Shown here piece by piece: positions 7,871 to 39,384 of a stretch of 64,000 bases of DNA. This DNA comes from Marsupella aquatica (Eukaryota > Plantae > Marchantiophyta): positions 21,515,619 through 21,579,618 of the forward strand of contig OZ316892.1 of the NCBI GenBank assembly GCA_973895155.1, given 5' to 3'. Both the position numbers and the translations under genes were made by a program. Numbering within the stretch: the stretch's first letter is position 1; every line of letters begins with the position of its first letter. The notes beneath the pieces are model-generated. The model was given only the letters and a program-made list of their open reading frames with translations. It was not told where the DNA came from and ran no database searches.

Positions 7871-8249
7871 GAACTTTTGCCCTGCAAACACCCAAAACCC
7901 CCTAGAAATGTACCCCCAAAAACCTTTCACCCTAAACCCTCAAAACTCCAAATACTTTCATAACTCATCCTATTCACCACAAGTATTTGTTACACTAAAC
8001 TCCACTCAGGGCGTGCCACGTGGACCAATCTCATCATGATGTGTGTCATGCCATATTACTGGCCCCCTTCAAGCAAATTATTTTGGCCGGCATTTTGGAT
8101 GCCTTGGAATAGTTATAAAGAGATTGTCATATAAAATATGGTCTTGTTGGTTATAAGTCGATTATAAAAATTAATCTGGAATTGATTTAAATGTACCCTT
8201 CGGCCGTTCGCACGTCCGGTCCATTATTAATAACGTTGGGGGCCCAGGG

Positions 8250-10780
8250 TGACATCCTCATGGGTGTGACCAACCATGAGAAACGACATCTGCACTGTTT
8301 CAAAAACACCTCTACTAACAAGCTCACTGCAAAATGCCATCACGTACTGGTTTTTGTTATCTTTCCCTGAATTATCCATTTGCAAGGTCAGGTGCCTTGG
8401 CAATGGTTTGAAAGAGGTAGACGTAGCCTTGGGATCAACACCAAAGTCATCATCCACCACATTTGATAACCCAAGATCTTGGTCATCTTCAGCTCCTTGA
8501 AATCTAGCAATTGAGACTTTTTTGGGTTCTAAGTAACCTGCGAGAAATGCTTCAAAGTCCAAAAGAGATTGAAAAATTGGCCTCGTTGCAGCCCAATATA
8601 ATCCTTCAAGGAGGTCTCCAGATTTTTCCCCCTTGTAATCCTCCAGATCTCTAAGGCACTTGGCCAATGATGTCACTGTGAAGTCTGCATCTCCCGGCCA
8701 AAGTCCAGTGAAACTGAAGTGAGCATACACTCCGGGATCCCTTCCATGGGTCAACATCCCAATGAGCGCAATGGGGAGCGGTTGACCACTACCAGACAAT
8801 GATTTAGGAGTGGGGACCAACCTAGGGATCCATGTCTTGGCTTGGTCCATCTTGTCATATATAATGCAAAGATAGTTCTCAGGATCCTTCTTCGCAAGAA
8901 CCCTATGAGCATAGTAAACATATCTCCTAGACATTTGCTCACAAAGATGGAGAGCTCTTTCCTCAATCTCTAAACGCTCTTTCTTTCTCTTCTCCCGCAT
9001 CAACTGATCTTTGAACTCAGTGCAAAGTGTACACTTTGCAAATGCACTTCCCTTGTGAAAGTCAAAATTCATGAAGGACTCACTCCAGAGTTTATACATA
9101 GTGTTTTCACTCACCTTCACGTAGCCATCTAATTCCATTTGTGAGTATACCTCCTCAAAAATCTCTTTCTTCGTGAAACAAGATGGAAGTCTGTACTCAA
9201 CTGTGTCAGTACCATGAGACCCTCCATAGGGAAGATGCGGCATGGGTTCTCCGTTTTGGGTTAGAATGGACTCCAACAAAGCATGAGCAAGCAAGGTGCT
9301 TCCCCGTGTCTTGTGTGAACCCTTGTTTCCGTGGAATCCAACCGTGCAACCTGCTTCATATTGATTTTTGTAATCATAATACTTGGCAGTGCTGAATCCA
9401 TGCATTTTAATAAATGCACCCTTGCAAACAAGTCTACTTCTTACAATGAAATATCCTTTTGTCTCCACTTCCTTCTCCCTATAGCCAAAAAGAGTGAGAA
9501 TGTGACTGGTTTTGTTGTCGCTTGACATCCCATGGTATTCCCTCCTTATCGCCTGTAGGTCTTCTCTTGGCATGCTGAGGCAACACTTCAACTTACAACA
9601 ACCTTCTCTTTGGATGGAGTCAATTTCCTCCTCTATGATTTTCAGTATCGCCTGAGACTCCAAGTGCTTCTTTCTTTTTTCATCTGGGTTAACCTTTGTT
9701 CTCTTGATGAAGTTATACTGGCGCTTTGAAAACTCAGTGTCACCTTTCATATCTACCTCTAGATGATCTCGACCATCAATAATTGGTTTCGGAGAAACCT
9801 CTTCAATGAGATCCAGAAGAAAAATACCCCTTGATATCAGCAGAAGTGAACGGACGGCCCACCTAACAAGACCAGGCACTCCTGGGGAGATATTTGGGAA
9901 AAATAGAGGGTCAATCACGCGTGTGACCACAACGTACCCCAACGTGATCTGGCCCAAGGACATCATCATCAATTGCACCTGACTCGAAAGGAACTGTGAT
10001 GATGCCAACCCCCACTTTGGTCCGATTATCCTCAGCATACAATTCCACCTCCTCGGTCATCCAATTAGAACGCAAACTATAATCCTTGAAATTATAATTT
10101 GAAAAAACATCCCGTGTGGACAGGTCGTTTAGTATATCCTGGGAAGAACTCCTCCGAGTAACATCCTTTAAATTCCAGAATACAAAAGTGTCCAATGCTT
10201 CCTGAACGGTATCGGCTCCATTGTGAGGAAAGGGTAACCTCTCCCTTCCTTGAAAAACTTCACATATTTTCACACTAATCCTAGAAGTGCCAAGTCTTTC
10301 ATTGTGACAGGTCTCATCGGGATTCATCTTGAACACAAGATTTCCACGAGCCACAATCTGATTGCCGATCTAGAGCTCAACTTCATTGCCAGATACAATC
10401 GAGTCTCCAAAACTTCCCACCAAAGATTTGTCTGGTACAAAACCGGGAACTGTATCCTTTGTAGAACAAGAGGCATCCATTTCTGTTGTCGTTGGAGTTG
10501 ACTATGACTTCAAATATGCAAAAGAGGCATCCCAAATAATGCAGGAGTCGACAACATCAAACAGGGTCCTGATCGGCGGCAAAGGGTAAGGAATTTCCCG
10601 TGATCCCTCATAGCACTTCTCAATGAGAACTCCAATACGATTACCTCCCAAATCAACATTACGCACTGAGTCACCCGGGTCAACCTTGAGGACGGTCCCG
10701 CAAGCAACTTCCACTCCATCGATTACGAGGCAAACCTTGTCCCCTCGAAAGAAAATCCCCATTTTGAAAATGTGGTCCAA
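8250..10780 (-). pseudogene. Transposase B: three tandem beta-barrel-like repeats (Tnp1/DUF8039-like) plus GHTH-type catalytic domain (DUF7869-like); truncated
   Basis: ORFs 10502-10780 and 9911-10354 are one frame broken by two TAGs, then a 1-nt frameshift near 9935 leads into ORF 8227-10038. Motifs: CCKLKC, FAKCTLCTEF, IIYDKMDQAKT, LQMDNSGKDNKNQY, FLMVGHTHEDV. Repeat unit of the type xVxLxxxxxxVAxGxV...xGV...W. Confidence 0.75.
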
Positions 10781-13280
10781 ACCGTTGGATGTAGTTACCT
10801 CGAGATGATCTCGAGGTAAAGTGACTACAAAAACAAACCAAAAAACCCAAGTGTAGAAGTTTATCCCACAAAACTATGTGATAGAGAAAATAAGAAACTC
10901 TTCTACCTCGAGACGATCTCGAGGTAGAAGAGGGACCAAAAACACCAATATGTAAAAATTCAGAAGTATTTAGCTCGAGATGATCTCGAGGTAGAATATG
11001 AAATCTCACTGAATAGCAAATTCAGATTCTATACCTCCGACTCTCTACAAACTCAATTAGAAGAAGGACAACCGAATGCACCATTAGCTAGAAGGCAAAA
11101 GTTAATAATTTTGAGGATCAAACTTATGACTCGAGATGATCTCGAGCCAAAAAGGACATTGTATTTGACAAAGATACTATTATGAATAATAAGCCACCCA
11201 AAATAAGAACATATAAATGGCTCTAGATGATCTAGAGGAATGATTTGGTGCAATTAAGAAAGTAGGCTCCCAGTTTACTTCCAAACACTGAGAAATAGCT
11301 TCTAAAAGGCCATCAAATAGAGGGAAAAGGCTTCCAAATGGATTTTGACCGACATTAGTATAAGTTGAAAAGGTTTGGTTTTCTAAGAGATAGGAGCTCA
11401 ATTGTTCTAGACCTCCTTCAGAGCTTAAAATGATAATTTCTTGACATATCCTAAACACAAACGTAGAGTCCACAACCCTTAAAAAGAACAATAGAAAGAG
11501 ATTAGAGCAGAAATCTAGAGCCAGAGAGAGGGAGAGGGAGAGGGAGAGAGCAGAGAGAGGCAGAGGGTGAAACGAGCGAGCAGTGAAACAAAATGAGAAG
11601 AATGACCCGCTGGAGAGCAAAGAGAAGCAATATATAAAACCCTGACTGACAAAAAGGCCAATAAGACGGCTTGGTTGAACTTGTGTCACGACTAAACTCG
11701 TGGTAGGGCTGAAGTACGGATAACAATAATGACAACACGTGTGACCGTAATAATGACTGTACGCTCAAACTAGTTTCATGGCAACCTGCATGAGCCCGTG
11801 GCACGCTTGGCACGGCCCTCAAGGCCGACCGCCAAGGGGCTTATAGTGGCTTCTGGGGGTTTGAACTCCCCATTTGCACATTCGCCTCCTTGCCTCCTCG
11901 CCTCCCTCGCCTCCTCTTGCCTCTAGATTTTTTTGCGCTCTTGCCTTGAGATCCTTGTAGTAGCCTCAAGATTAAAGAGGGTCGAGATTAGTTTTTTTCC
12001 TCGAGATTTTATAGGGTCAAGATTTTGTGTTTAGGCTCAAGCTTCGATAGGGTCGAGATTTTCTGTTTAGGCTCGAGATTTGTTTTTAAGTTCTCAGCCC
12101 GTAGTACGTTCCTCTCTTTACCAGCCATGTCTACTGTTGTAGATTTCTCCAAGGAGGACTTTGCTGAGTACAACCTTGCAACCGTTGGGGAAGAGCTTCA
12201 GACCCATCTAGACTCAGCGCATCAGATCCATCGCACCATTAAACGTAATTCATCATCTTTGTTCATTGTTCAGGTTTAACTCAAGATCATCTCGAGCTTC
12301 AATTGGTCCACTTGTTTCTGGATTCTTTGGATACAGTTGAGGCTCGAGATCATCTCAAGCCTATTGATGTTTTCTGCATTACTTTGCTTCAAAAGTTGTG
12401 ATCTATCAATTGATTTTGCATTTGATGTAAGTGGCATGAGGCTCGCGATCGTCTTGAGCCAATATGCATTTCCTGCATGTTACCTTGTCATATTTCTTCA
12501 AGTTGGAAACTCTTATCCTTCAAAATTGAACATCATATCTAAAATATCTAAAATTTCCTTCCTCTAGGGACTTTTGTACCCTCCAACTCATTCTGATCAT
12601 TGACATCCGAACGGGTTTGTGGGTATCAAAAGTCAATGGAGAAAGTGGATTTTAATCATTGATTGAATATGATGTTCATTGTTGAATATGATATTTGGAT
12701 CACTCGTTTGAGATGTTAGGCTCGAGATCGTCTTGAGCCAAATATATTCATCACCATCTTCCATTATGTTCATTCGTATCCCTTGGCCAATTTCTTCCAG
12801 TTGGAAGGACTCCATGTCGTCTACTTCAATTACTAATATCCTATTCAATGTGATCCAAGCTTGCCTTTTGGACCACTTTCTTAGTCCTCCAACTCGTTTG
12901 TGAAGATGACAAACCACTGAGTTAGAGGGTTTTGAATGTGGTCGAATAGGTGACATTGGATCATTCTTGAAAATGTTGTTCGTTAAATTTGACTGGTTTA
13001 TGATATACAATGGAATAAAACCTCAACTGATATATATGAGGATCGAGTTCATATATCATCTCGAGCCCTTGTCTTTTTCTTTTAAATAGATGGTGGCTCG
13101 AGATCATCTCGAGCCTATTGTGGTTCCTAACTATTGTGTTATCTTTTTAGATTTATTGGGGTTGAAATCTCTTTTTAAATTCCCCGGATGAAATGTGGCA
13201 TTGGAACATGTCAGACTATAGTGCATAAAACCGTCAACTCAACTGTCCTAAAAATGAAGGAAGATCGAGATCGTCTCAAG
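9757..13280. repeat. Cluster of 17-bp spaced palindromes CTCGAGA-N3-TCTCGAG
   Basis: Full or near-full copies at 9757, 10799, 10907, 10974, 11130, 11221, 12280, 12343, 12442, 12721, 13097 and 13264, plus half-sites at 11980-12080. Confidence 0.9.
11522..11570. repeat. GA-rich microsatellite in the divergent promoter region of element B
   Basis: gagagagggagagggagagggagagagcagagagagg. Confidence 0.8.
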
Positions 13281-14299
13281 CCACCTATTTGTTTCATGGT
13301 TTGTGGTACATGTTTATGACAATTGCTACATTTTGGCTGTAACAGGTGCGAAATTGGGATCGCCTAATTTGGTAGTCGAAGATGAACATGCAATTGAGGT
13401 TTCCTGCCCTGGACAAGGTCAATTTGGATTCTGTTGGGCCATTGAGCTTGCTGAACTGAAGACATGGAAGGAACTATTATTTGTGTGAAGACGAGGTCTC
13501 CATCAGTCGATCCTCTAGTGTGCAGCCTACTAGGGCCTGTTGTTTCTATTGTGACGAGTAACGGTAAGGACATGGTTTTGACGGTGGAGAACCACAAGAC
13601 AGGGAAGTGGGCTCTAATTAGACTTCACGCCAAAAACTACTCTTGCGATCTTAACATTGAACGTGCAGCCAGGAAACAATTGAGCGTGATATCAATGGGG
13701 TTCTTCCCCGAGGGTTTTACTACAAGTAATTTGCTAGAAGATACTCCTATATCTGGAGCCGACATAATTTTTGGATTCCTTTATTGTCGAAAGTATGGGT
13801 TTGATCGTGATGATGCATTCACAACTCCTTTCACGTGGAAGGTTTTGAGACTAATGTCGGAATCCAAATTGGGGGAGTTTGAATCCATATCCCCTGATTT
13901 TGTGTTTGGAGCCGGAGAATTTGACGAGGATGCTTGTAAAAAGTGGGTGTTGTCTCATTGGAGACAAACAAGAAAATTGAAATCTGTAGCTACGGGAGAC
14001 AAGACATCCGGTTTGGACAAAAAGGAAGCAAAGGTGTCTCAAAAGAGGAAGAGGGTTGAGAAACTCGAAAGCAAAGCGAAGAAGGCTCCAGCTCCAAAAA
14101 AGTCCGTGCCGCCCAAGGTAGATCTCATTCCGGCATCTTCCTCGGGTGTGATTGCACATACCGATGATGATGGCACTCCAGGAGATGCTTCAAGAGAAAA
14201 AAGCGTTAAAGAAGGAGCCAAAGTTCTTAAGGAGATTGAGGAGTATTACACATTTGGCATGAATGAAACTTTTGACATTCCTGTCACTAGTATAGATTC
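12128..14299 (+). pseudogene. 5' half of the element B ParB-MTase cargo gene (N-terminal region, Lys-rich linker, start of ParB-like domain)
   Basis: Putative first exon at 12128 (MSTVVDFSKEDF...IKR/gt), acceptor near 13345, ORF 13464-14306 ending EEYYTFGMNETFDIPVTSIDS. It joins in frame to 26058 across a duplicated ATTC. The upstream exon structure is tentative. Confidence 0.6.
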
Positions 14300-15430
14300 G
14301 CTATAGCAAGATGAAAAAGAGATAAATGACTATTTACTCCTTAATAACTCGATTTCGTTCCCGTTAGGAGTGGATAAGATCGAAAAGACTAAATTGACAC
14401 AATTTGAGAAGTTTACACCAACATTCTTAGGTTGGAGAGATTTCTAATGATCTCCTTAACATAAGTGTTTAACCACAAACTCAAGTGAGTAATCCTTAGG
14501 ATTCACAGTGCAATAATAAAGACTAGAATTAACAAAGATTGAAACTAGAGAGAGTAGGTAGGAGGTTTCAAAGCGCAAGGAAATTGAATTCCGACCATCA
14601 CCACTCTTTCAATAAGGATTATGGCCTAATTTAAGATTCGGAAATCAACATTGTATATGCTTTTTGATTTCTCATAGAAACTCTTCTCCATCTCTTGAAT
14701 TTAGAAGACAACAATGTAAATCAACCCGGGACACTTTTCTGGTCTTACTTAAGACGGTACTAGGATACTCGAATTGGTTTACTTCTCCTACTATCCTTAA
14801 GATTGCTTATTTGAGTTTCACATAAATTCCAATTTCTCTTTGGTGAATCTTCTATATGAATTGGTCACAGACCTTGCTGATCTTCCAATATCATCATAGG
14901 CACACGCTAGTATTCATTGAATATTGCACAATAACTCAAAGGGTTGCTAATCTTGAAACTTCTCTTTACTTAACCATGGTAAAAAGAAGGGAAGATAAGA
15001 CATAGATTTCTCCAAAATCAAAATGGGGAAATCAAATGCATCTCTCTCTCCCGGGGTTGACTTTGGGTTCTCCTCCTTTTGTACTAAAAGTGGAGATTAT
15101 GAAAATACATGCCTCTTCAAAACCCAAGTCTAAAGAAATATGTAAATAAAAGTGAACTATCCTAGTCAAAAATGGAGTAGAGTCTCCAATGGATACACCA
15201 ACAAAATACTGGAGTCTACTTACTCATATACTAGTCTATATAGTTATTTCTAAGTCTAAACTAATGTGGCTCTAACTCTCTAAATATAACTCTATTCTGG
15301 TCCTAGCTTTTGGGAAGGAACCTCCTCAGGGTTAGCCATGGCAAGGGGTTCTGGTCGAAGGACTCCCTGCTGGCCAGTGGTAAAAGGGATGGACGGGTCA
15401 ATATCCATGTTCTCCTGATGGGCACTTGGG

Positions 15431-15952
15431 TCATGAGAATAAGTGTACGTAAGAATGGGAGTGGAAGTGTGTACTGGGAGTGGGGAAACCAGGAGGGTTG
15501 AGGGGTGATGAGGGGCCAGTGGAATAGACTCCTTCATGAGGACTAGGAGAGAAAGATCTGGTAGTAAAGGCAGGAATCTCAGTATCAGCTAATAGCTCCT
15601 CTGTAGTCAAGTCACTCATCTCCCTTAAGGCTTCACAGGTCTTTGAGAGACCCGTAAGTGCATCATCCACCCTGGCACTCACATCTACCACTAAATGGTT
15701 AATCTTGGAGAAAAGGATGGGTGTGGTGTTTTTGGCCAAATACTCATCATAAATTTGGGTCTTAAGAAGATCCAGAGAAGCTATCTTAGTCAAAGGTTCA
15801 ATCAGATCCAAAGATTGAGTGATACTGAGTTGGAGAGTATGAACAAGAAGCCTTAAGGGATGAGTCCAAAGCCTTATTTCTCTTTTCAAAATCTTCATGA
15901 TATTAAAAAGTGTATACCAAAAAACCACCAAAAAATGGTATATATTTTCCAA
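15431..15952 (-). other. ORF of unknown function in the AT-rich left arm of the insertion
   Basis: 173 aa, helical-looking, no recognisable motif; possibly retroelement-derived. Confidence 0.25.
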
Positions 15953-16162
15953 ACTAGACTCAAGAGAATTTTACCACCAAAATCTAAGCATATCTTATAT
16001 GATATTCTCACAATTGTATAAACCTTGAAATATGCACTTTATAAAAGTAATCAAAATCAAACTCATCGATCAGAGTTTAAGTCAAACTCAAAGTTTTACA
16101 AAATATAACCCAACTTAAGCCCAAGTGGTTTCAAATGCTACGAGTCCCTCTATTTATCTAGT

Positions 16163-19100
16163 CTAATCCAAAGGGACCGCTTCCCCTTCGTCGGTTCCGG
16201 AAGTCCCTGTCGTCAATTCTGGAACAATTGTGGCATCGTCAACCACACTATCCTCTCCGGCCTGAGGAATGTCTTCCTCACTCTCCTCATCCATCTCCCC
16301 CTGTCCGTCTTCCTCTTCAATGTTATCTGCAAGGTTAAGAATCCTCCCTTTCAACACACTGCTCTGTCGCTCGTCAATCTCAATGGCAACGCAATGTCTC
16401 CCCATGGCCAAGGAGGAGGTTGTCCCAGTCCCTGATCCTGAACAAATATCCAAAACCCAGTCTCCAACCTGACTAAAATGACTCACTTCCCAATCTAACA
16501 ATGCACGTGGTTTCTGATAAACATTCACTGCCTTGTTATCCCCGTTGTGTTTCAGCTTCTTAGTCACAGCTGCGCATACAACCACATTGTTCCTTGATTC
16601 ATTTGTGTCAAAATTGAAGTGCTCCAATGACCGTTTACCATCCTGGCTGTGAAAGCCAATTGTAAAGCACTCAAAGTTGCTGTTCAATCTTGGTCCACCA
16701 GCATTCTTCACATTATCCTTAACCCTGAAAAGTCACAAAAAGTCAAGGAGTTATTTAAACTGAGAAACATGGTTCATGAAATCATGAATAACTAATAGTT
16801 GTTTTTTTCAAAAACAAATATTTCTTACCACACACAATTCTGGAACCCTCCATTACACTCCGCTTTCAAAACGGTCTTGATGGCCTCATATTGGTCAAGG
16901 CTGTGGTGAATGATAATACGCCACAACTTTGCAGTAGTAGCCACCTTGAACGATTGGACCATTTTTGTGATCTCCTCAGTTCCCCATCCAATAGTGTCTT
17001 CATGAAGACATCCAGGCAATGCAAACCCGTAGGGAATATCCACTAAAGCTAATGTGTAAGCCCGACCCGGAACCACCTCATGTAATCGCTGAGCATCATG
17101 AGTAAAAATATCATAGTGCACATCACCAAACTCTGGATGCTCAAACGAATTTGGATGAAGTTCCCCCTCTTGGGTTTGCCGACTAGAAGTCTTCATGGAT
17201 AGCCAATTTTGGGCTTGCACAATATGCGCATTGAATTTGTCCGGGAATGACTTGAGATCTTTGCCTTCCTCATCTCCCTTCTTTTTCCGGGAGGTGGTAT
17301 CTTTCTACAAAAAGGAACTGTAGAATTAGAAACAAGGATTCCAAATATTAAATGAATTCAAACAATCATTCGAAGAAAGGTGACAGAATCTTACCCATGT
17401 CTGGAAAACAGGTACAAAATTCTTAAGCACATTGTCTGTGCAATGCTCAGGGTACTTGGTTTTACAACCTGACCAACTCTCCTCGTGTAGACACGTGAGG
17501 AAGGCCTTCTGCACCTGCATCTGAAATTTGTGTCGAGTAAATTCGTGACCCATTTCCTGTAAAGAGAGTTCTTTAGTAAGAACTCTCTGTAACACTGGGC
17601 AAATCATATCAGGATCTTTCAAGGCCTGCATGTGTCTCCACTCTGTTAATTTCATGTCCTCATAAGGCAATTTGGCATCTCCAGACTTAGAGACTTTCTT
17701 CTTGCCTTTGTCTCCTTTTTGACCTTTGATCTCACACATCTCCCACTTGTCACAAATCCGCCTCACAAATGACCACACAGGATCTTGTCGGAATGCCAAC
17801 TGAAATAGGTTATCATTGGCATTAAGAACCTCAGCATCCTTTCGTACACCCCAATCCTTGAGATTGATTTCAGTAGCACACTCTTTCTTGAAATCCTGGT
17901 TGGACGACAATCCATTCTCAACAAATCTCATGTGAATATAATTTACTCTCTGGATTGTCGTCATCTGTTGTCGAAATTCAGAATCAATATTGTGACTCCA
18001 CGCAAGGTTTCTTGCCTCTTGCACACTCAATCCCGCAAATATCCAAGATTGCACTCTCCGAAATGCCTTGTTGTTAGGGAACTGAAGAGCAAGGTCTGCT
18101 TTGGCACAGGCTGAATGGTTGCCCCCAATCACATAATAATGGTAATCAGCTTTCCTTGAAAAATCAAAGTCTTGCCTAGTAGCACACTCCTTCGGATCCA
18201 CCAAGAGGACAAACGGAGCTGCAAGTGGACTGGCACCTACAGTCTTCATCCGCAAGGTCAATTGGGTCAAGAAATATGGTTGGATGTGTCGGACCTGGTA
18301 AATGGGCAAGCCCACAGCCTTCTCTCTCACTGGAGGGTAAAGTTGACCAATGTTAACGGTCACGGTCTCCTCTTGAACACCACATCTTCCCAGAATCTCC
18401 TCCTGGTACAATACCCGTGCATCCATTGACATTGATTGAGCCTTTTGCTCCAAATGCGTTGGAATTTTCTCCAAAGTCTTCTTTTTGGACTTTGTAGCAC
18501 TGGGCTCGGTAGGCTCAGGAGTCATAGCAGGTCGCTTCTTTGAAGAAATGCGAGTTCCAGTCGTACCTTGTGCCGACCCACCAGTCAAAGCCGTTCCCTG
18601 GGATGATCTGCCAACTTGAGATCCCCCTCCAGATGCTGCTGCTTCCCGGGAGGTTGTAGGCGCTACCACGGTCAAAATATCATCGGGTAAAATGCTAGGC
18701 CTCGATCCAGAAGGAACACCGGAAGCCCCAGATTTGGGTGGACGACTTACTCCCTTCTCTGCCGACCTTTTCCGGAGAATCTCTCTTGATTTTCGGATTG
18801 CACTCTTTAAAGTGCTAGCGTGAAATTCAAACACAAAACCGGAAATCTTTCCCGCGACGTCGTGGTAACGTTCCTCACTCAAAAGAGACTTGACAGTCTC
18901 AATGATGCTATCGATGTCCTCATCGAGATAGCAGGTGGCAGCCGTTCCAGAAAACCTCTCCACATCCACGACAATCAAAGTTGATGTTTCCTTCGTTGTG
19001 ATCAACATGTTCACAACTTCGTCGCCCCGTTGAAATACATCGATGCGGCCGTAATTTACCCACCCTAATGCCCCCGATGGAAGCCCCTCAAATACACACA

Positions 19101-19224
19101 GCATTAGGAAGGGCTTCTTCCATGTTTCCGTCCCTAAGGAAATCGTCCAGGATGAGTTGTGGAAGTCCGTCAAAGGATGGCGCGAAAAGATGTCATCCAC
19201 CAGCTCTTCCTGCGACATTGTCAT
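16163..19224 (-). CDS. ParB/Srx-like domain plus beta-class N6A/N4C DNA methyltransferase fusion; 3 exons, 955 aa, apparently intact
   Basis: Exons 19224-17395, 17304-16829 and 16724-16163 with GT-AG introns of 90 and 104 bp splice in frame (2868 nt). ParB-like motif YYVIGGNHSACA. MTase motifs in beta order: LALVDIPYG (IV), CVWVK...NFE, VNVYQKPRALL, GDWVLDICSGSGT (I), GRHCVAIEID. Confidence 0.85.
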
Positions 19225-19388
19225 GTTTTTGCCTGATCTTCAAACCTGAGAACATACCACAAAATCAGTCCACTTCAACCCCAACCTGCGAGACAAAGTG
19301 CCACAGAACCAAGGAATGTGCCAACAAATGGCTACTAAAACCGTGTCCTTACGGATCTAACAACGCTCTCGGCCACCCCAGGACTCCT

Positions 19389-19496
19389 ATCATGAATTCA
19401 TGAAGGGAGTCTCCCTCTCGCTCCGACCTTCATGAATTCATGAAGGGAGTCTCCCTCTCGCTCCGACCTTCATGAATTCATGAAGGGAGTCTCCTC
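19389..19496. repeat. 40-bp tandem repeat (about 2.6 copies) carrying palindrome TTCATGAATTCATGAA in the divergent promoter of unit A
   Basis: catgaattcatgaagggagtctccctctcgctccgacctt at 19391, 19431 and partially at 19471. Confidence 0.9.
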
Positions 19497-20043
19497 TCTC
19501 TTTGCTTGTACACCTCGGTGATGCAGAAGGGTATTTAAAATAGGGTTCGGAGGGGGGTGACGTGAAGAAATCACCCAGGGCCTAAATTACTACCTAAAAC
19601 AGGGTCGAAATGAAGTGCGACCGCGACAACTCGCGACACGTCGCCGATGAGTGCTGAAAATGGCACGAAATTGGATAGCGAGATTGTTTTTCACTCTTTT
19701 ACAAAGGAAATCCAAATGACATTGAGTGAAAATGAATGGGCTGCCCCGTGTTCCTTGGTTATACATACTAATCACGGATCAGGCGCGACTTAGTAAAATT
19801 AACCCAGAATCATGATAAATCAATGTTTTTGGGCCAATTATTCATGAATATTTCGGGGTATTAACGGGAAAAAGCTTGCAAATTTCATGAATATTTGATA
19901 TTTTTGAAGTTAAAAAGTCCCAACAATCCGTGAAAAACTATAAATAGGCTCGTTTATTCATGACTCTTGGTCATTATTTTGAGAACATTTGTTAGATTTT
20001 ACTGATTTTCTGAGTTTCCTGTCAATTTGCACTAGTTTTTCTA

Positions 20044-23000
20044 ATGGCGGCGTGTTACGAATCAGATGATTATTCAGATGGAGTTTCTGATGATGTTTCA
20101 TTGCCGGATGGCCCCTGCACAGTGGTTGGCCCAGATATCCCTGGAATAACTACTGTTTTAGATATGCCACCCCCCACCCCTATGAGCAAGTTAAAACGTA
20201 GTCCTTTACGACTTGCAATTAGTGGGAAGAAATCATTGGTCGGTGGTAAAGAGAGGTTAGGGAGCTCCTCTGACTCCTTGGAGAGTATTGGTCCCCCTGG
20301 ACGTCAAGTTGTATCTCCTTTGTCACCAACAAAGGACAAATTGGGGAGTAATCTGGAAGGTTCAATGCCTATTTGGATGTCTGGGAAACGGTCTCATGAA
20401 TTCATGAAGACTGGATTTGGAAAGACGAAGAAGGCACTAAGTGGGGAAAATGACAGAGATTTTTGCAGTCTGCAAAGTGTTCAGCGGCTGAAGCAAATGC
20501 CAAAAAGTAAAACCTTTGGTAAGCCAACGTCGGAAACATTTCACAGGGGGATGAGGGAAGAAACTAGACGACCAGTGTTATTGAAAAGTATTCCAGAAAA
20601 GAATTCTAATGTGCGTTCCTCAGTTTTACCTAGGAGTCATGGTGTTGGGGCAGGGAGCGGATCAAGTCACGGAAACTCAAACAGGGAAACCAACCTGGTG
20701 GAGAGGGACCCTAGGAAAATATTGAAAGGGTCCCTACACGGTAATGGAGGGATTTCTGAAATACGCCCAGGTATTCCAAGGGTGCATAGAGTGAAGGAAG
20801 AGCCTCCATCTCCGAAGGCTGCAGGTCTGGAATCTAGGCATGTTCAGAAGCAAATGTTGGTGACCATTTCATCATCGAATGAAAGCGAGTCTTCGGAGAG
20901 TGGGGAGGATGATGATGTTCCGGTGGCATCTAGTCGTTACAAACGTACGAGCAACGCCACTTTGTGTGAAACAAAGTTGAAAGAGGAGGATATCAAGAAA
21001 ACAAATAGTAAGTACTGTTGTCAGAGTCATTGTCTCCTAAGTCTATCTCCAAAAGAAATTCGTGAGGCCCGTTCTAAATTTTTGAGGCAGAAATCTCAGG
21101 ATCGATCTTTATCTTTGCAGTGGCTTATAAAGCGAGACGGAAATGAAGGAGGGAGGCAGACTATATCTTACACGTTTGGTCAAAAGAGTATTTGTCGGAA
21201 AGCTTTCAAGCTTATATTTTGCGTTGGCAATCATAGATTAAATAGAATTTTGAAATTAGACAACCAAGACTTAGGATATTCTAAACCAGTTGGACGCCCT
21301 CCATCTGTTAAAAGATTAGTCTTGGTCAGTTGGCTTAGGTCGTTTTTTGAGACACGCGTGGAAACATTGCCAAATAAAGAAGTTTCACATTTACCGGATA
21401 ATTATTCAAAGCTGGAGGTATGGAAGATCTACGACTCCAACTATGCCAAGATTGATGAATCTTCAAAAATATCCTATTGACAATTCTTGAAAGTTTGGGT
21501 TCAAGAATTTGGTCATGTGAAGATTCCTCCAGTCAATCGATTCAGTGCTTGCGCGGATTGCGAGGAGTTCAAATCAATTCGGGACAAAGCTGTCTCGGAG
21601 ACCGAAAAGAGTAAGTTGCTTACAAGTTTGACAAGTTTTTGTTTCAAGAATATGGCTTAACACATGATTTCTAATTCTTTTTGAAGAAACTAACAAGTTG
21701 TTTTTCCAGGGCGAGGGGAAATTATGTTACAAAAACATAGAGACCAACAATCCAAAGAACGTGAGAAACTCGCGAAGCATCGTAAGAAATGTTTTTCAAA
21801 TTCTGATAAATATTTGGGAGTTGTCATTGATGGGATGGATCAGAAGAAGACAAGGTTGCCTCATTGGCCGCGGCCCCCAAAATCGGTGGACGAAACATGT
21901 TTGATCCAAATGCACGTTGTCGGATGCCTGGTTTTCAATGGTGCACTATTTTCAAGAGTGTTTCTTAATTATCCTGTATTGCATAATGATGGAAACTTGA
22001 CAGTCACAATCCTGCAAAGGGTGTTTCACGAATGGGAAGAAAAGCCTGGTGGCTTGCCGCCTGTTCTCTATCTTCAACTTGATAATACCAGTAGAGAAAA
22101 TAAAAATAATTTACTCTTTGCCTATCTTCATATGTTGATTCGAAGAAAGGTTTTTCGGAAAATCAAACTAGGATTCTTGTTGGTTGGACACACACACGAC
22201 CAAATAGATCAAATGTTCAGTCGATTTTCTAAACGACTAGCAAGGTTTAAGGCATTCACATACGAAAGCCTATGTGATATTATTTGTGAATCATATCAAC
22301 CCCAACCAAATATCGCTCTTTTAAAGGAAACATATGATTTCCGTCAATATGCCTTCTCAGATCCACCTTTAGTCATTGAAAGGATTCGAAATGTTACCTT
22401 CCACCACCAGTACAAATTTGCATTTGACAAGTTGGAAAATCAAGTTCCAACCCAATGGGGGAAGAAGTTTTCCACGGACTCAACTTGGAAACCTGACGGA
22501 GGCGTGAAATTTTTGAGGGAAGAGGAGCCAGAAAAGGTGATGGGTTGTGCTCCCGGATTACCCCTTTTCAAAAAGGGGGATAAGAACGTTACAAGGACTC
22601 AACCAAATATGTCTAGTTCTTCAAGAATGACTTTGAAGGAGATGGATGATTCGTTAAATGAGATTCAAAAGGGAATACTTGCAGTTGAAACTTTATTCTC
22701 AGAAGAGGAAGTGAACTGGTGGAGAATGTTTTTTGAAGAGCAACGGGAATTGAATAAATCTTTGCTCCTTGATCAAAGACCATTGATTTTCCCTTTTCAA
22801 TGGCCACGCTCCCAAAGGGAGATTGCTGTTGCTGCTGAAGTTCCCAGAGTCCTTGTCAATGAAGAGGAAATTGAAGAGAGAGTATACGGACCTACCAGAG
22901 ATATATACGTGGGTCCTTATCGGAATCAAGGAAAGATAGATGCAGAGAAGGAGAATATGGAAGGAGACTTTTCGGATCTTGAAGTCAACACTTATATTTC

Positions 23001-23442
23001 TGTTGCTGGAGAAGAATCGGAAACATTTTGGGTGGCCAAGGTGGAAAGAATTGACCAGCGCGACGAGTTCAACATTCCAAAAATGATTTATGTTTTATGG
23101 CATGCTCCAAAAACCGGGTCAGATCCTTGGAAAGCCAAGTACTTACCAGAAGTCTTAAACTACGAAAAGAAGAAAAGTGGTCGTGGGAAAGGAACTTTGA
23201 AACCAATATGGTTTCACCAAGAGCTTGATTTATCTTCAACGACTGTTTTTGCTTACAACTTCATGTTGACAAAATCTGATACATTGTACAAAAAGACAGT
23301 AGATCGAATCAAAATCCGATTGACTGAATTTTTGGCAGAAGAGAAAGAGCAAGAACAAGAGAATGGATCAACTAGAACCCCGCTAGGAGATAAATCTAGG
23401 GATATTTCGTTTCAAGAATTGAGAACTTCTGGATCTGAGTAA
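20044..23442 (+). pseudogene. Transposase A (GHTH-type, DUF7869-like), 2 exons, about 1099 codons with one premature TGA; C-terminal SH3/Tudor/BAH-like region
   Basis: ORF 20044-21480 reads through TGA into FSACADCEEF; intron 21611-21709 joins it in frame to ORF 21724-23442. Motifs CCQSHC, ICRKAF, VIDGMDQKKT, YLQLDNTSRENKN, FLLVGHTHDQIDQMFS are colinear with transposase B. Confidence 0.8.
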
Positions 23443-23976
23443 TGAAAAGTAGTTATTGTTTATGACATTACCATTGAAAAACATGGATAACTTGAAAATT
23501 TACAAATTTTCAAAATGCCTTTACCACTTATTCATGAATTCATGGTTAAAGTTTCTTGAGAAATTTGTAGTTTAATATTATCTTAGTGGGTTGTGTTTCA
23601 ATTCAATTAGATGGTGTCATTTCTATTCTCCTTGTCTTCTTTTCACAATAATGTGTATCAGGTTAAGTTGTAGTAATTTATTTTCTGGTTTTTAAATGAC
23701 AATGGCTTTTGGAGGTGATTTAGTTGTTGTTTCAAAAGACACCTCGTGTAATTGTGAGACCATTGTAGATAATAGTGTTGTATTTGAGATCATTTATTGG
23801 TGGAATGTAACTTCAGATGAATTTGGTCATTTTTAGGTGTCAAAACATAGCTAGTTTATGTCATATTTTGTTCGCTCCATATTTTTGCTCTAAAATAGGT
23901 GCTAATTTTTGCACTTTTTTAGACTTTTTCGTTGTTTTTCTGATTTTTTGGCTAGAGTTCCTAAAGTATGGGCTTG

Positions 23977-25275
23977 TTACTCATCATTTAAGGCTTCTTG
24001 TTTATGCTCAAGCTCATTCTTCTTCTTACTCCTTTCCAACTGCTGTTTGAGTTTAGATACCTTCTTCTTGAGGAACTCATTCTCCTTCTCCAACTTCCTC
24101 TTATCTGTGGCATCACTCATGGTGGAGATCTTTTCAAGAATCTGCCCTGGTTTCACTCCTAACGTCTGAGAAATGTCAGTGATGGCCTTCTCCATCACAG
24201 TGGTCTTCCTCTTCACCTTCTGGAATGTGTCTGAGATGATCTGGAAATCAGCTAGGGTGTCTAGGGAGGCATGGCCGGGTGCATCCGGAAATTCAGCTGG
24301 GTCGACGAAGTCCGGGTTGAGGTTCCGGGCAGTAGACCGGGTCTTTCAAGGATTTGTCTCTGCTGGTTCCTCATCCTCACTGTCATCAGAGGTGGCCTAG
24401 GTGATATCTGGATCTGCCTCTCCATACTTTATGAAGTTGAACTTGGCCAATAGTAATTTCTTCTCCTCTCTGAACAAGACTCCTTCAAAGCTATATAGAT
24501 GTACCAGGTAGCAGGAGAGGGGAGTAGGACTCTTATTGGACAGGTTCTGTACCAACTTCCTTATCAAATCAAAGATAAGCTTAGCCCAGTTGACTTTTCT
24601 TTCTCCCTTGTAAGCAGCAACAATGGTAGAGCCAACTCCAACAGTAACTCTTCGTGGCTTCTCAGGATATAGCAGGGGTAGCAGGAAGCTGAAGACTCGT
24701 TTCAAATCAGGATCCAAACACTTAGAAACATTGAACCCGTCCTTACTATTGATGGCTCCTTTGAAGTAAGGGAGGATTAGATTGACAGCTCTCCCCACTG
24801 GACCTTCTCCTTCATCTTCCAATACAAAAGCTCCTGCAACCATCATCTGAGTCCATCGCTCAGGTCGGCCTCTGGAGGTATCCTTAAACTCAGCCGGACA
24901 CTCCTTGGATCGGATCTCTCTGATCATATCTTCGCTCTGATAACTCCAGGGTAGCTCCATCAGAGACTCACAGCCCATCCTGAGCAAAGACTCCCTCAAT
25001 TTGACCTTCTCAGCTTCATTGTCCGGAATAGCTGGCCTCAGAATTTTCATGGCAATGGGGACCTCCTTTCTCTTTGATCGTCTCACAGGGGCTTTAACCG
25101 GAGTGGGTGCAGGTGATGTTGAGGTTGAATGCCCCTTAGAAACGCGAGAAGTGGATATTCTGGCTGGATCCGCCCCTTGCTCCATAGGATTTCTGGAAGT
25201 AGCAAATTGATTTTTGATAAATGGTTTGCCTTCTCTACGGCAAGCTCCACAATGATGCGGCTTCAGAATGTTCAA
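23977..25275 (-). pseudogene. Plant transposon-associated protein (Transposase_32/PMD-like) with coiled-coil tail; two internal stops
   Basis: ORFs 24397-25275 and 23977-24216 share a frame across TAG and TGA. LMELPW...KVNWAKLIF...LSCYLVHLY parallels LASLP*...RKWASYF...FASHIEIIL in the ORF at 55974-58622. Confidence 0.55.
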
Positions 25276-26053
25276 TCTCTTCGGTGTCGACCACTGGTAG
25301 AAATGTCCGGGTCGACCTGGCCGCAGCGTTTCTGATCAACTGACGAGCTTTTCTGGAACAGTGTATCAAGATTCCGTCAACCAAAATACAGGTGCATCGA
25401 ACTTGGGGAAAAGCTAGACTCAATCGGGCCTGCAATGGTGATGTCCGGATCGACCTGGCCTCCCTTCTCACAACCGATGTATCCACAATCAGGATCTTAA
25501 ACTTTTTGCCTTCACTTCCAGCGGTGGAGTAGGCATTCCCCTCACAACGAATCAGTCAGTACCCTCATATCTAGGCTCTCATCATGCAATGCAAGATTGG
25601 TCCTATAATCCGGACCCAAGATCCTCTACCAAAAGGGTAGAGCCTCCTCACTCTACTACTTAAACAGCCTAATGCGCTTGGGAGCTCAAAACCTATTAAG
25701 TTCGGCTTTGAGAGGTGTGAGAGGCCGGATCGACTCTCCTTCCTTATATCCGGATTCTGCTGTGGTCGTGCCTGTGTTTGACTTATGGTTTTAAAAACTT
25801 TGGCAATGGACAGCTATTGTTCATAAGAGTCATGGTATAAGCTTTTATATCTCATCATGGCTTATAGTAAAAAGTTCCGGGTCGATCATCCTTCTCTAAT
25901 ATCAATCCGGGTTGACCTCAGATGGGCTTGAAAGTCTCATACCACTTCAAAGTAGTCTTCAGGTCCCTCTTCAGCCTCATTTGAGATCTTAAACATAAAA
26001 ATTCTAAAATTTATGATTAGTTAACCCTTCTTTCATAAACATCCTTATCTCAC

Positions 26054-28841
26054 ATTCACCGTCTGCAGTATTGGTATATAGGATGTTCAATAAAGATCAT
26101 GCCATGGAGGTCGCAAAATCCATGGTTAGAAACCCTGGAATGGTACTAGCTGTGGCGGATTTAATTCTGTATTCAAGAGAGAGTTTGCAGTTGCTCCATT
26201 ATGAGAATACTCCTGAGGATCGAAAGGAGTTTGAGTGGGGTGTTAAGAATAAGAAGGTGCAGTTCCTTGCAATTAGTGGACAACACTCGGTAAAGGCAGC
26301 TGTTTGGATCATAGGTTGGGCTAAGAGCGATGCAAAGTTGAAGGAGGTCGCGAAGAGTCTACAATATCGAAAGTCACAAATTCTTTCGGACAAAACTCCA
26401 AGAACAATACTTGCTCAACACTCACAAAGGGCAAATGCTGTTAATAAGACCATGGAGTATGAGTCCTATTTTCTTGATACTATGGTCCATGCCCGTTGAC
26501 AGTTTGACGAGTGTGGCCGTCCTGAGAGACCCGTGATTGGGTCCAATAGACTAACAAATTATCAAAAGTTCGAACTCAAATCCATTTCTAGCTCGAGATT
26601 GTCTCAAGCCTCGAGGTCAAGTTTCTGTATTTGATTTATCTTCGTGTATTCTCCCATAAATTTCAACATAGTTCCTTAATTCTACCTCAAGATCGTCTCA
26701 AGCCTCAGATTTTCTTTGTACTGTTTGGATCAGGATTGTATGGCCTTGGCCAAAATAACGACTGGAAAATCCGATCTGAAGAAATATTTTTTGGTTGCTG
26801 TTTTTGGAAGAGAACCTCTTCCAAACTTGGAGACAAATGTGCATCGATTGGGTCAAGGGACTTCTTCCGGATGGTCTAGGGGAGTTAGGTTCAAGAATAA
26901 ATGGGAAATCCCGGACAACAAAAATGATTACGCCGGCATTGTTTAGATGCTTTGAAGGAGACCTGAGTAGTGACAACATTCTGAAAGTTTTTACTGCCGT
27001 TCAACAATAGAAGGTTTTATTGAAGAAAGACCCAGCCAACAAATTTGATGTTCAATCAATGAGTGATATGGCTCATACTTTTAAAGTCATGACGAAGCTG
27101 AGGGCAAAAATTGTGGAGTACTTCATTTTGAAGTATCCGGATCGGTTTGCCAATTCACTCACTTGGTTTGAGCTAACTCAATTTTTGCCTGCATTTATGG
27201 ATCGTGGTGAGTTGCCTAAACTTAGACAACTTGTTGGAGAGGTTTGGATTTCCAACCTCCTAAAAAGAAATAGGCCAAAAGACCCATTTCCGCAAAGTCT
27301 CATTGTTAGGCTTGAGCAGATATATTGCAAGGTATTTGGCGGGATGCCTTCAATGGAGGATACTCCTTATTGCACATTTTTTAGCGATAATTTGATGAGG
27401 ACAATGAAGCCTGAGATTGTTGACTCGGTGCAAAGGACGTGCCCACTTTCCATTGTCGATTTTGGTCATCTTCGATAACGGCAGTGGACAGATGCCAATT
27501 TTTTTGTCTTGTTGGAGTATTGTTTGTAGATGGCGAACTCGACGGAGCTCTTGGTAATCTTTTTTGTCCGTCAAGGCCCATTGATAGGCCAGATTCAGAG
27601 TGCCTTTGAAAAGATTTTTCGTGAGAAGAAAGTCCACACGAAGCTGGAGTACGGGAGCTACTACCGTGATCAGCTGCCCAAGGAGGAGGGAGATTTTCTC
27701 ATTGGAGCCCGAGACTCAATCATCTTTGGGGGAATTTATTGTCAAGAGGAACCAGACTGGTCCCAAATTTTCTTTGATGACTTTTATGCATTTTGGAACT
27801 ACACTGAGAAATGGGACAGACTTCACAGTCTTGCCTTTGAAGGCCCCTACTGGGAACAACAAAGACCAATCAAAGGGGAAAGATAAGCTCGATGAATCCA
27901 CTGTTGATGTCAAAGTTTTGGAGAAGATGGCCCCATCTTATGAGATGGTCGGTCGGTGGGGTGGCTTTGTAAATCCGAGAGCAAAGCCTTTGCGAATGAC
28001 AAAGCATCTTGTTGATTATTTCTCGTGCCCAGGTCAGACAGTGTTGGATTTCTTCTTTGGAGGACAGACATTGAAAGCTTGTGTCATTCTTGGTCGGGAT
28101 TGTTTTGTGTATTTGGACACAGCTCAAGAGATGGAATTCACAGAAGCCTTTGCTCAGCTCCTTCATGACAACAAGCAGGTTTTATATGTGCCACCCAAAG
28201 AGCCGTTAGCATCTGAGGAAATTACTGCCGGTCCCCTCGTTCTTATAGAAGAGACGGCCTTAGACATAGCTCCGGTGGAAGCCAGTGTTTATGAGGAAGT
28301 ATTTGAAGAGAATTTAGAGCATTGCAAAACGGAGGGCCCAAAAATCACAAGCTACGTGGAAGAGGAGGGTGAAATAATGCCTGAATTTGGAAATGATGCT
28401 CGAGATGATCTTGATGTTCCAGGTGTTTCTTCATCGGGTGGCCTTGGGGATGCACAACGTGAACAACAGTCTTCAACCTTGGATGTTGGCTGGGAGTCCA
28501 CCTTGTAGGATGCAGTTAGCCAACCAATTCCAAGCCCTCCTCAACTGGATGAGATTTTCTCTACTAAGAAAGCTAGTGGCTGCCATACTCCCCCTCAAGA
28601 CGAGGCAGGTGCATCATCCCCTCCCTTGGACCAAATGTTTTGCGCTTCAGAGAATAAGCTTGTTTTCACAGATTCTTCTACTGGAAGCCCCGTAATTCTC
28701 CCTTTTGTTAGGAAACCGGGGACTGAAATCGGTAGAACTGGTTACAAATCACTCAAAGCAAGTGCTACTCATTATGTTTGGACTGATGGACCGTCAAAAG
28801 GTCAACAAGTCTCTATAGAGCAATCTGAGAAGATTATTTGA
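26054..28841 (+). pseudogene. 3' half of the element B cargo gene: ParB-like domain and degenerate amino-methyltransferase
   Basis: FLAISGQHSVKAA corresponds to YYVIGGNHSACA of gene A. FVNPRAKPLRMTKHLVDYFSCPGQTVLDFFFGG...LGRDC corresponds to VNVYQKPRALL...VLDICSGSG...MGRHC. Several stops and frameshifts. Confidence 0.75.
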
Positions 28842-29262
28842 TCTAGAAAGTATAGGAAGGATAAGTTCAAATTAGTGTCAGTTTGGTCTGAGCCAGCTCT
28901 TGTTGAGACCCTTCTTGGAGGGATAAATTTGGACATCCAAAACCAACTAGGAGATAACCTTCTAGATGAATTTGGGTCTTTCAGCATGTGAGGTTGAAAC
29001 CCAAGTAAGTTTGAACAGTCCTGAAATTCAGCCGTCTAAATTATTATGTCTATCTTCACAAAAATAGGCGGGCCCTTACCAGTTGTGGAGTGCGTCGATA
29101 ATAATCTCCGAAGATGTCCTGAGATTTCTTCAACTACTGACCTTCAACCAACAATAGGTATGATGTTGACTGTTGTTCATTCACTTGTGATGCTTGAGAT
29201 CGTCTCGAGCATTCCTTTGTTTTATCTCCCACAATTCTAACATTGGTGTTCCTTCTTTGCAG

Positions 29263-30023
29263 GACCCTTGCCTCCACTTCACGGTCCGATCAGACGGAAG
29301 CTATTGATTCTTGACCTCAACAAAATGTACTGGGATTCTGTCAAAACGCCAAGTTCCGGACCGCGTCGTAGTGCAACAAGTGTCAAGGGTGTCCACTGGG
29401 GGAGACGTGGAGGGTTTAACTTTATGTATGTTGAGCGACCCCATCTTCACGAGTTCTTAATCGCAGCTTTTTTGTTATTTGATGTTGCCATTTGGACTTG
29501 TGCAAGGAAACCCAGGACAGATGAAATGATTCATTTGATCTTCAGTCAAGAAGAGCGAGAGCAATTCAAGTTTATTCCCACACAAGAAGATACATTCGAT
29601 ACTGGAATCCAGAGGCCTGACATTACCGATGTGAAGGAAAATATTCATTTGAAGGATTTGAGGGTTGTTTGGAAACATTATGGTGGATTATATGACGAAA
29701 CTCATACACTCTTTCTTGATGACACTCCAATGAAGGCGTTTGCAAATCCAGAGAATTGTGGGTTGTTTCCTTCCTCATTTTTGCATCACTCCACGGATGA
29801 TACATTCTTTCCAGAAATACTGTGGCCTCTGCTCAGAAAATTGTATCATGCCTTCAATCTTCAGCACTACCTTTTTATCAATCATCCAAAGTGGTCTATG
29901 ATAAATGTTTTATCGGACAGAGATCAATAGGCTTCCATTTATGCGTTGTTGACGGAGCGGTGGGATAGTATGGTATGGGTTCATTCGGTTATCCATACAG
30001 TCTTGGATGTCACAGTGGACGAA
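29263..30023 (+). pseudogene. FCP1/NIF-type HAD phosphatase domain exon, cut by an LTR insertion at 30024
   Basis: RKLLILDLN...ERPHLHEFL...FDVAIWT...KDLRVVW...YDETHTLFLDDTPMKAFANPENC. Acceptor at 29262; the frame continues past TAG 29928 to 30023. Confidence 0.85.
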
Positions 30024-32890: not shown

Positions 32891-33173
32891 CCGTCTCGAA
32901 ATAGTCGCCTCTTCTAAATAAGGACGGAACGTTGTATGCCCCATCATAAAGACCTTTCTTATCCCTTGTCACTTGCTTAGAACTCAGTAACCTTCCATTC
33001 CACTATCTTTCCTATTCTACCTACTTAAGTTCCTAAAACCTAGTTACTCCGATAGCACTTCAAACGTCTTTTTTACTATTCCTTGTTCAAAAAGCAAAAA
33101 AAATGACAAGTTTTTTACATAAACCTATATCGAGCCATTCCACAACAAAATTCCTTGGGATGTCAAGAATGAA

Positions 33174-33446
33174 GTGCAAAAATTACCACCAATAGAGGAA
33201 TTGACGGAGGAGGAGATCAACGACCTTGCAAAGATATTAATTGGAGATCAGTACATAGGACCCTATAGAGACAATCATCGGGGATTTGTTTCGGAAGTCC
33301 TGAGGTGTAGGGACCTCACCACGGAGTTCTGGAATAGAAAGCCTCTCGATTTTTGCAATCGCGATATGAAATATGACCCGTCAGGGTCTAGATTTACTTG
33401 CTCAAATGAATTCTGCGGGGTGGAGGAGCATGAGATTTGGGTCTAG
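33174..33446 (+). other. Small ORF in the right arm of element B, unknown function
   Basis: About 90-110 aa protein-like frame with acidic helix and CxxxxC near the end; bounded by element B palindromes. Confidence 0.3.
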
Positions 33447-34149
33447 ATTATCTCGACCCTACATTGAACAGTTACGATGTGAGTTGTAGATATACATATT
33501 CTTACTCGAATAAAGAGTGAAGCTATGCGTACTATCCATTTGGGTCTAGATGCTGTTGATCCTCTTTTACTTGTAGATATGTTCTCAAAAAAAGGTTATT
33601 TGGGTCTCGATCCTATACAAAGAGAATAGCTAGAGATATAGATTCAACAACAGGTCAAAATTATGTGGACTTTACATTTGGGTCGAGATAATCTCGACAT
33701 AGATTTTTACATAGTAATTGATATACATTCAACAACCGGTCAAAACCATCTAGAGCCTGCATTGGGGCAGACGTGGTCTTGACCCTGTGAAAATAGGTTT
33801 TTTACTTTTATAATACATCACTGGTTTACCTTCCCTGTTTGTGTAACTTGGTTATCACGAGTCATTTGAATTTATTATATTGTCTTATTCTATTTTTTCA
33901 CTATTTATATTTTATATAATAAGAACACTTTATTATCTTTTAATTAATAATTATTTATAATTGTTAACTGAATTATTTAATTAATAATTTGGGCATTAGA
34001 ATTATAATTTTAGACCTCAAAAAGTGTATATTTGGCCACTAAAATATATGCTTTTGGGGTACAAGTTATAGAACTTTTGGGGGTAAAATAATAAATTTGA
34101 AGGTCAACTTCTGGACTAGAAAAATTCCAGTTTTAATGAATAGGGTGAT

Positions 34150-39340: not shown

Positions 39341-39384
39341 ATCAGTGAGAAGGAAGTGAGCTTGCCGGTGCATTGGTGTCTATG

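Follow-up and report, generated by a model that had tools for sequence, protein, structure and literature searches.

What does a 17-bp palindrome, repeated 16 times inside one transposon, do for that transposon? The question is raised by a 64,000-nucleotide stretch of the liverwort Marsupella aquatica (contig OZ316892.1, positions 21,515,619 to 21,579,618; the whole stretch is called the window below), which holds element B, a broken DNA transposon encoding a DUF7869 transposase and, divergently, a second protein with a ParB-like region and an amino-methyltransferase fold. A first-pass annotation had described the repeats as a dispersed palindrome, CTCGAGA-N3-TCTCGAG, and had proposed a parS-like site or methylation target recognized by the element's own protein. 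Our analysis suggests, with a probability of roughly 0.55, that the 17-mer is a family-specific docking array of the DUF7869 transposon, likely read by the element's ParB-pseudo-methyltransferase, which would keep the promoters active against host silencing.

The N3 pattern matched exactly at five positions in the window (0.00 expected) and at 21 positions when up to three mismatches were allowed, against 1.76 expected and a maximum of six in 100 shuffles. All 18 copies listed in the first-pass annotation fell within that limit, but the spacer given as N3 reads T-C-R on one strand and gives the word an orientation: the 17-mer CTCGAGAT-C-RTCTCGAG fits only 16 of the 18 (at most two mismatches besides CG-to-TG/CA changes), all of them within element B. 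Allowing three such mismatches gave 17 rows in the window, the sole addition being a three-mismatch match at 57108. Eleven copies differ from CTCGAGATCGTCTCGAG by CG-to-TG/CA changes only, and five further copies carry one or two other changes. Across the 16 copies, 4 of 176 non-CpG positions were changed, while the 48 CpG slots comprised 25 intact, 20 decayed and 3 otherwise changed; the central CA variant, present in nine copies, may have been amplified as such rather than having arisen by independent decay. The longest perfect arms measure 16 bp each (10898-10932), replacing the 29 bp at 10901-10929 reported before, and copy 11221 is the only doubly changed, still symmetric copy inside B.

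The word is real and, within the window, element-specific, as the first-pass annotation had held. An unbiased 8-mer scan ranked ATCTCGAG top in B (17 seen, 0.22 expected), and this 8-mer occurred 17 times in 10,020 bp of B, compared with none in element A (8,175 bp), none in what remains of the nested insertion (3,578 bp), none in 30024-34898 and one in the other 37,352 bp. The previously noted absence from the whole nested insertion (14302-26054, 11.7 kb) was likewise confirmed. The genes of B and the copies of the word are arranged as follows.

8251..10762, minus strand: broken gene for B's transposase, with DUF7869, Cys motifs and, at the N-terminus, tandem domains (Transposase_23/PF26133 in homologues)
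9757..9773, minus strand: degenerate copy within the transposase reading frame
10799..11237, minus strand: five copies (10799, 10907, 10974, 11130, 11221) lying 5' of the transposase start codon, in the inferred 5' untranslated region (UTR) or intron; degenerate duplicated units
11940..12090, plus strand: half-site run (TCGAGAT/TCAAGAT) in the plus-strand gene's inferred 5' UTR
12127..14301, plus strand: 5' part of B's second gene, interrupted at 14301; residues 52-86 of homologue P0061 match 14190-14294
12280..13280, plus strand: six copies (12280, 12343, 12442, 12721, 13097, 13264) in the inferred intron 1 (12274-13345, GT-AG) of the ParB-methyltransferase gene
14302..26054, no strand: insertion nested in B between TTCGC and TTCAC, a 5-bp duplication with one change
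26055..30023, plus strand: 3' part of B's second gene, encoding a ParB-like region with an SGQHS box, a helical region and a beta-class methyltransferase fold that lacks DPPY, followed by the NIF-like phosphatase exon
26592..26702, plus strand: two copies (26592, 26686) in an inferred intron at about 26568-26733
28399..28415, minus strand: degenerate copy within the coding region of the plus-strand gene, the sole copy opposing transcription
29193..29209, plus strand: one copy in a 105-nt inferred intron that precedes the NIF-like phosphatase exon

Gene models and introns of B were drawn from splice signals and homologues only. On these models, 14 of the 16 copies are non-coding, non-coding sequence making up 2,780 of the 10,114 bases of B (27%), and the two copies in coding frames are those already placed there (9757 and 28399). 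Fifteen of 16 lie in sense orientation relative to their host gene, the orientation flipping between the two promoters.

The transposase start at 10762 was set from homologues P0013, P0017 and P0020, with Transposase_23 in P0017 and P0020; in the homologues the PF03017/PF26133 domains are N-terminal. The gene is cut at 8251, just past a GHTHED motif, by a piece resembling a long terminal repeat (LTR), and its 3' part was not found in the window. The second gene, degraded here by stop codons and frameshifts, is collinear with P0061 over 14190-14294, 26059-26532 and 26792-28982; one contig of sequencing run X2 passes from 14301 into letters like 26060 onward. The NIF-like (HAD) phosphatase exon at the gene's 3' end (29241-29930; Pfam E 4e-15) might act on the RNA polymerase II tail or on chromatin proteins. 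B's terminal repeats were not found, and on the right B is truncated at 30023 by inverted repeats (30024-30766 and 34150-34898; 750 bp, 96% alike, TG...CA ends, no evident target-site duplication). A Pfam scan of 22 open reading frames (ORFs) returned DUF7869, N6_N4_Mtase and NIF, with no Mutator domain. The DNxxxNKN and GHT motifs resemble those of Sola-type DNA transposons. The window as a whole is repeat-rich plant DNA, and named homologues of its transposon proteins came only from the liverworts Calypogeia fissa and Riccia sorocarpa, which fits a liverwort host.

Inside the nested insertion lies element A, a sister element that repeats B's gene plan, a DUF7869 transposase gene with a ParB-methyltransferase gene, and carries a word of its own.

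about 15835..24009, no strand: element A, nested in B; ends approximate (39-bp inverted pair, 82%); own word TTCATGAA / TCATGAATTCATGA
16163..19239, minus strand: A gene for a ParB-fold and beta-class amino-methyltransferase protein; three open stretches, DIPY and DICSGSGT motifs
19390..19965, no strand: ten TCATGA sites in the interval between A's divergent genes; a 40-bp tandem repeat holds six
20014..23442, plus strand: A DUF7869 transposase gene

In A, the 8-mer scan placed ATTCATGA and TTCATGAA at the top (15 and 11 seen; 0.78 and 0.45 expected). The latter had 11 matches in A and a single one in B, with none in any other part of the window (7 versus 1 with the tandem repeat collapsed), and 14 of A's 18 TCATGA sites were non-coding (10 of 14 after collapsing). 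This different word in the nested sister element, missed by the first-pass annotation, is the strongest evidence in the analysis. The inverted pair itself (15835-15873 and 23971-24009, 39 bp, TTAA in the middle) allows two end assignments: either terminal repeats that start with GAG and lack a visible duplication, or a palindrome of the flanking reading frame, with 18-bp arms, that encloses a TTAA duplication.

Runs X1 and X2 yielded many contigs with the B family, and runs X5 and X7 more diverged members. Over 10770-11260, contigs of four runs placed 1 of 40 listed variable sites within the five copies, against 6.9 expected, and this sole site was a CpG change. One X5 contig across two copies showed 13 differences; of the 10 that could be traced, nine fell in the 50-bp spacer and one in a copy. 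A single 97-base X7 contig (organism D, mostly less than 90% alike to B) carried two copies separated by 11 letters, plus the first part of a third copy, the spacers being different. B's word is apparently under selection. Contigs running into unlike sequence amounted to 0.01 (X1) and 0.02 (X2), values that required matches longer than the word and so were not counted as a genome-wide measure. A metagenome scan for relatives gave one locus among 121 candidates, with transposase coding DNA only and no flanks, and two viral scans gave none; an exact-word scan of prokaryotic genomes returned at least 120 stretches, each of the 80 shown being a single match, which we read as chance and did not use.

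Units were lost or added in X2 contigs, and such duplication and deletion between copies would fit an array that is a neutral by-product, its palindromes copied or perfected by slippage or template switching or left over from a tiny insertion. Extended arms in some copies point the same way, as do the flanks: earlier described as mostly unrelated, they average 34% identity over 24 bases and share short extensions and unit duplications. Against this, the copies lie far apart along B in matching orientation, the spacers diverge while the word is kept, and sister element A has the same layout with a different word. A micro-insertion footprint with its own target-site duplications, which the first-pass annotation had raised as a competing explanation, was checked and rejected, along with a miniature inverted-repeat transposable element, as the best flanking direct repeats were 0-4 bp, no longer than at random positions. 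We regard a neutral origin as the least probable of the explanations considered.

Sense orientation in nearly all copies, almost all of them in transcribed non-coding DNA, could also reflect an RNA hairpin in introns and 5' UTRs acting in splicing or transcript control, and flank positions 1-3 were complementary in 9, 10 and 8 of the 16 copies (about 4 expected). However, sense-strand CpG changes gave CA in 16 cases and TG in 4 (P 0.012; 7 versus 3 in the arms only, P 0.34), a bias that breaks rather than keeps the sense-strand stem. Several copies hardly fold (26686, 0 kcal/mol; 28399, -1.2), the primary sequence is kept beyond what pairing alone would preserve, and an Rfam scan of 8000-35000 gave no match. 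The direction of CpG change, the poor folding and the retention of the sequence itself led us to reject a sense-strand hairpin as the main reading, and we consider such a role very unlikely.

If the word is read as DNA, both elements encode a candidate reader. The model of A's protein, built from a 12-sequence alignment (mean predicted local distance difference test score, pLDDT, 75.5), matched Noc and ParB in Foldseek (E 6e-5 to 7e-4) and aligned with PadC at Z 9.8 (root-mean-square deviation, rmsd, 2.8 over 95 residues), KorB at Z 7.9 and sulfiredoxin at Z 7.4. By this model, the protein is predicted to have a ParB/Srx fold at its N-terminus and, after it, a helical region that would bind DNA. 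In ParB proteins, the arginine box that binds cytidine triphosphate (CTP) has the consensus GxxR. The A family shows GGNHS in 12 of 12 rows, and SGQHS stands in B and P0061, in each case without KorB's CTP-binding arginine; we infer that these boxes are equivalent to the arginine box, with His in place of the Arg that the KorB report names as R117 and as needed for CTP. The enzyme half of A is CcrM-like (E 2.9e-10, below the family cut-off) and has DIPY and a glycine-rich motif I; judged by these motifs, A's methyltransferase may be active, which makes element A a candidate for a transposon-borne, active amino-methyltransferase in a land plant. Searching for fusions that extend A's protein gave none, which is weak evidence, cluster members being at most 669 residues long.

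The earlier statement that B encodes a ParB-like protein joined to an N6/N4-methyltransferase fold found support, the ParB-like part being a tentative call. The P0061 model is confident over about residues 260-750, which form a beta-class amino-methyltransferase (CcrM, Z 17.7, rmsd 3.5, 224 aligned residues), and PF01555 matched B at 27588-28505. Profile comparison gave no alignment between A's DIPY exon and B's family, and sequence searches of solved structures with both family alignments gave nothing significant. [DNS]PP[YFW], including DPPY, occurred in 0 of 32 search matches to B's methyltransferase family. Of 25 aligned rows, 20 covered the catalytic slot and read DFSR (9), DFTR (3), DFAR (2) or one of six other non-PPY variants; the window copy reads DFGH, where the family pattern is DF[S/T/A/G]R, and all six rows available for motif I read DFFSGG. 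D496 was assigned to motif IV by strand order and aligned range, not by residue-level alignment. Because the slot lacks PPY, motif I reads DFFSGG and the rotifer enzyme is reported to require SPPY for activity (PMC8885841), B's enzyme is predicted to be inactive across the family and not just in this copy.

The absence of an active-site motif bears directly on the possibility that the word is a modification target at which the element's own amino-methyltransferase writes N6-methyladenine or N4-methylcytosine, at GATC, TCGA or CTCGAG, to mark its copies. GATC is retained in 15 of 16 copies, the fold is of the beta class, some beta-class N4C enzymes are described as recognizing TCGA (PMC8885841), and A's enzyme has the motifs noted above. 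The family of B, in contrast, has no PPY and has an altered motif I, and an intact CTCGAG, even one, is kept in just 11 of 16 copies, which weakens the XhoI-type target proposed in the first-pass annotation. Amino-methyltransferases of this kind usually need sites far shorter than 17-23 bp, the length of the oriented site here. We therefore consider a modification target unlikely; of the earlier proposal of a binding or modification site for the element's own protein, the binding half is partly supported, whereas methylation is weakened for B.

Other mobile pieces of the window have words too. The two remaining copies of the first-pass list, 33441 and 33682, match the N3 pattern at up to three mismatches but not the oriented word (they are not among the 17 rows); they lie outside B, within the block bounded by inverted repeats (30024-34898), and are members of a local GGGTC[T/G]AGAT family. 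They were rejected as copies of B's word, and the compensatory change at 33682, earlier taken to imply selection on symmetry, thus carries no weight for such selection in B. A fourth word, GGGTC[T/G][A/C]GAT, has six copies at 33060-34149 and resembles two half-sites in B's 5' UTR (11979, 12050); this piece may derive from a relative of B. A third, CCGG[A/G]T[C/T][G/A]A, has eight copies (24312-25915 and 14721) in the retroelement-like part of the nested insertion, versus four in the other 60 kb.

Words in pieces without a detected ParB gene lend some support to the main rival, that the transposase, or its N-terminal Transposase_23-like domains, reads the array as Spm TnpA or the AtMu1 transposase does, with the ParB fusion serving another role. 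The N-terminal PF03017/PF26133 domains of B's transposase homologues favor it, as does the description, in a recent preprint (bioRxiv 10.64898/2026.08.24.746577), of transposases that can act as sequence-specific activators. However, no such N-terminal domain was detected in A's transposase, yet A's array is placed alike, and TnpA sites lie at element termini, whereas those of B are internal, around promoters and in introns. A transposase reader is thus a tentative possibility. We predict that a protein probably binds B's word; given binding, the ParB fusion is somewhat favored over the transposase, because it is common to both elements and KorB regulates promoters from a palindromic operator.

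Flowering-plant VANDAL and Spm elements provide known cases of transposon proteins that counter the silencing of their own family. The VANC motifs of the Mutator-like VANDAL elements of Arabidopsis are described as family-specific, intronic or intergenic, amplified by unit duplication and different in related families (PMC5735166). The words of B and A are likewise family-specific (17 versus 0 and 11 versus 1, for two elements only), mostly non-coding and built from duplicated units, but VANC motifs are 8-9 bp and non-palindromic while B's word is a 17-bp oriented palindrome, and here we have a DUF7869 transposase, no detected VANC or Mutator domain, and an accessory protein that fuses a ParB fold to a methyltransferase fold; anti-silencing is suggested by analogy. 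TnpA of Spm/CACTA elements is reported to read family-specific motif clusters at element termini (bioRxiv 10.64898/2026.08.24.746577). An element-encoded regulator with family-specific clusters is the shared trait, together with Transposase_23 in B transposase homologues; B differs in its internal sites and in a catalytic domain that Pfam does not assign to the CACTA transposases. On the best reading, B's array would work like VANC or TnpA motifs while belonging to neither family.

Bacterial ParB proteins offer a second comparison. KorB, a ParB-family protein, is reported to regulate RK2 promoters from the palindromic OB operator at varying distances (PMC11790492), and KorB-OB, like ParB/Noc with parS/NBS, resembles the elements here in pairing a mobile element's ParB-fold protein, modelled in A and putative in B, with a palindromic site at varying distances from its own promoters. 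The differences are a eukaryotic transposon, no ParA or KorA found, His for the CTP-binding Arg and a methyltransferase-fold fusion, and binding is predicted. No ATPase family that could supply a ParA partner appeared among the 22 ORFs scanned, B's ends being missing. The parS-like label of the first-pass annotation is useful as an analogy, but with an odd-length, oriented site and these differences, B's word and protein are not a ParABS or true parS system. For the enzyme half, bdelloid N4CMT (PMC8885841) and Marchantia DN4MT1 (bioRxiv 10.1101/2021.02.12.428880) are described as host genes with SPPY and demonstrated activity. They share the permuted PF01555 fold in a eukaryote and are of bacterial origin, whereas the proteins here are transposon-borne, ParB-fused and have DIPY (A) or no PPY (B). 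A review of eukaryotic adenine methyltransferases places ParB-helix-turn-helix fusions of chlorophytes and chytrids in another enzyme group and reports few such enzymes in land plants (PMC4738411).

On the docking-array reading, an element-encoded dimer would read the two half-sites of each word, and the protein would bind many positions around the two divergent promoters and in introns, favoring expression of its own family. The ParB fusion would recognize copies of its family through the word, and the array would have grown by short-unit duplication and eroded by CpG decay in a dead copy. The outcome would be anti-silencing or self-regulation of transcription, which we infer by analogy.

Several observations weigh against this reading. 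The ParB-like part of P0061 was modelled poorly (pLDDT below 50 over most of residues 64-257), and comparing profiles of B's ParB-like region and A's family gave no significant match (probability 0.6%). B is assigned a ParB protein on the strength of the SGQHS box, its position, a weak P0061 link (E about 0.005) and a weak Atlas lead. The P values for placement and orientation (9e-7 and 5e-4) overstate independence because the copies are partly duplicates sharing short flank extensions. The depletion of variable sites in the five copies (P 0.005; 0.019 if one further, hidden row falls inside) comes from a test biased towards conservation, since contigs often end at the repeated word and near-end differences go unlisted, so that variants can be hidden. 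The parallel change of word and protein is documented for two elements, both in a single window. Finally, private words also mark two other mobile pieces in which no ParB gene was found (8 and 6 copies), and a ParB protein is therefore no precondition for such a word.

The Atlas lead links B's ParB-like region (26017-26496) to DUF3723 proteins of ascomycetes (0.89; 31% of that cluster) and to unnamed phage clusters (0.91). A bolder proposal, which we hold to be doubtful, is that a ParB-methyltransferase module of bacterial or phage origin was captured by liverwort DUF7869 transposons, with each family's ParB fusion loading in KorB fashion at its own palindromic array and spreading along the element; the A-type enzyme would write an amino-methyl mark, and the B-type, with its dead enzyme, would serve as reader or shield.

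Elsewhere in the window, a broken copia-type retroelement occupies 34899-39590, with RVT_2 at 37491-38384 and LTR-like pieces at 36577-36736 and 39385-39545; the piece that cuts B's transposase gene (8161-8251) is related to these (73%). Arrays of short-period degenerate repeats with units of about 17-19 bp (40325-42543, 48379-48811 and 61068-61187) are probably subterminal repeats of other elements. A minus-strand reading frame at 46990-47330, which we take by eye to be SKP1-like, is possibly a host gene or pseudogene.

A literature search, which returned papers on rotifers and on a red alga, found no account of DUF7869 elements or of a bryophyte ParB-methyltransferase transposon, subscription journals and Repbase reports lying outside its coverage. 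With an active-looking enzyme in the A family and a dead-looking one in the B family, the two proteins and two words at one locus suit a swap comparison. If the captured-module proposal is true, a land plant would harbor a transposon-borne, prokaryote-style operator and epigenetic self-recognition. The nested pair points to an independent, liverwort-type version of family-specific anti-silencing, built on a bacterial-type ParB-fold protein.

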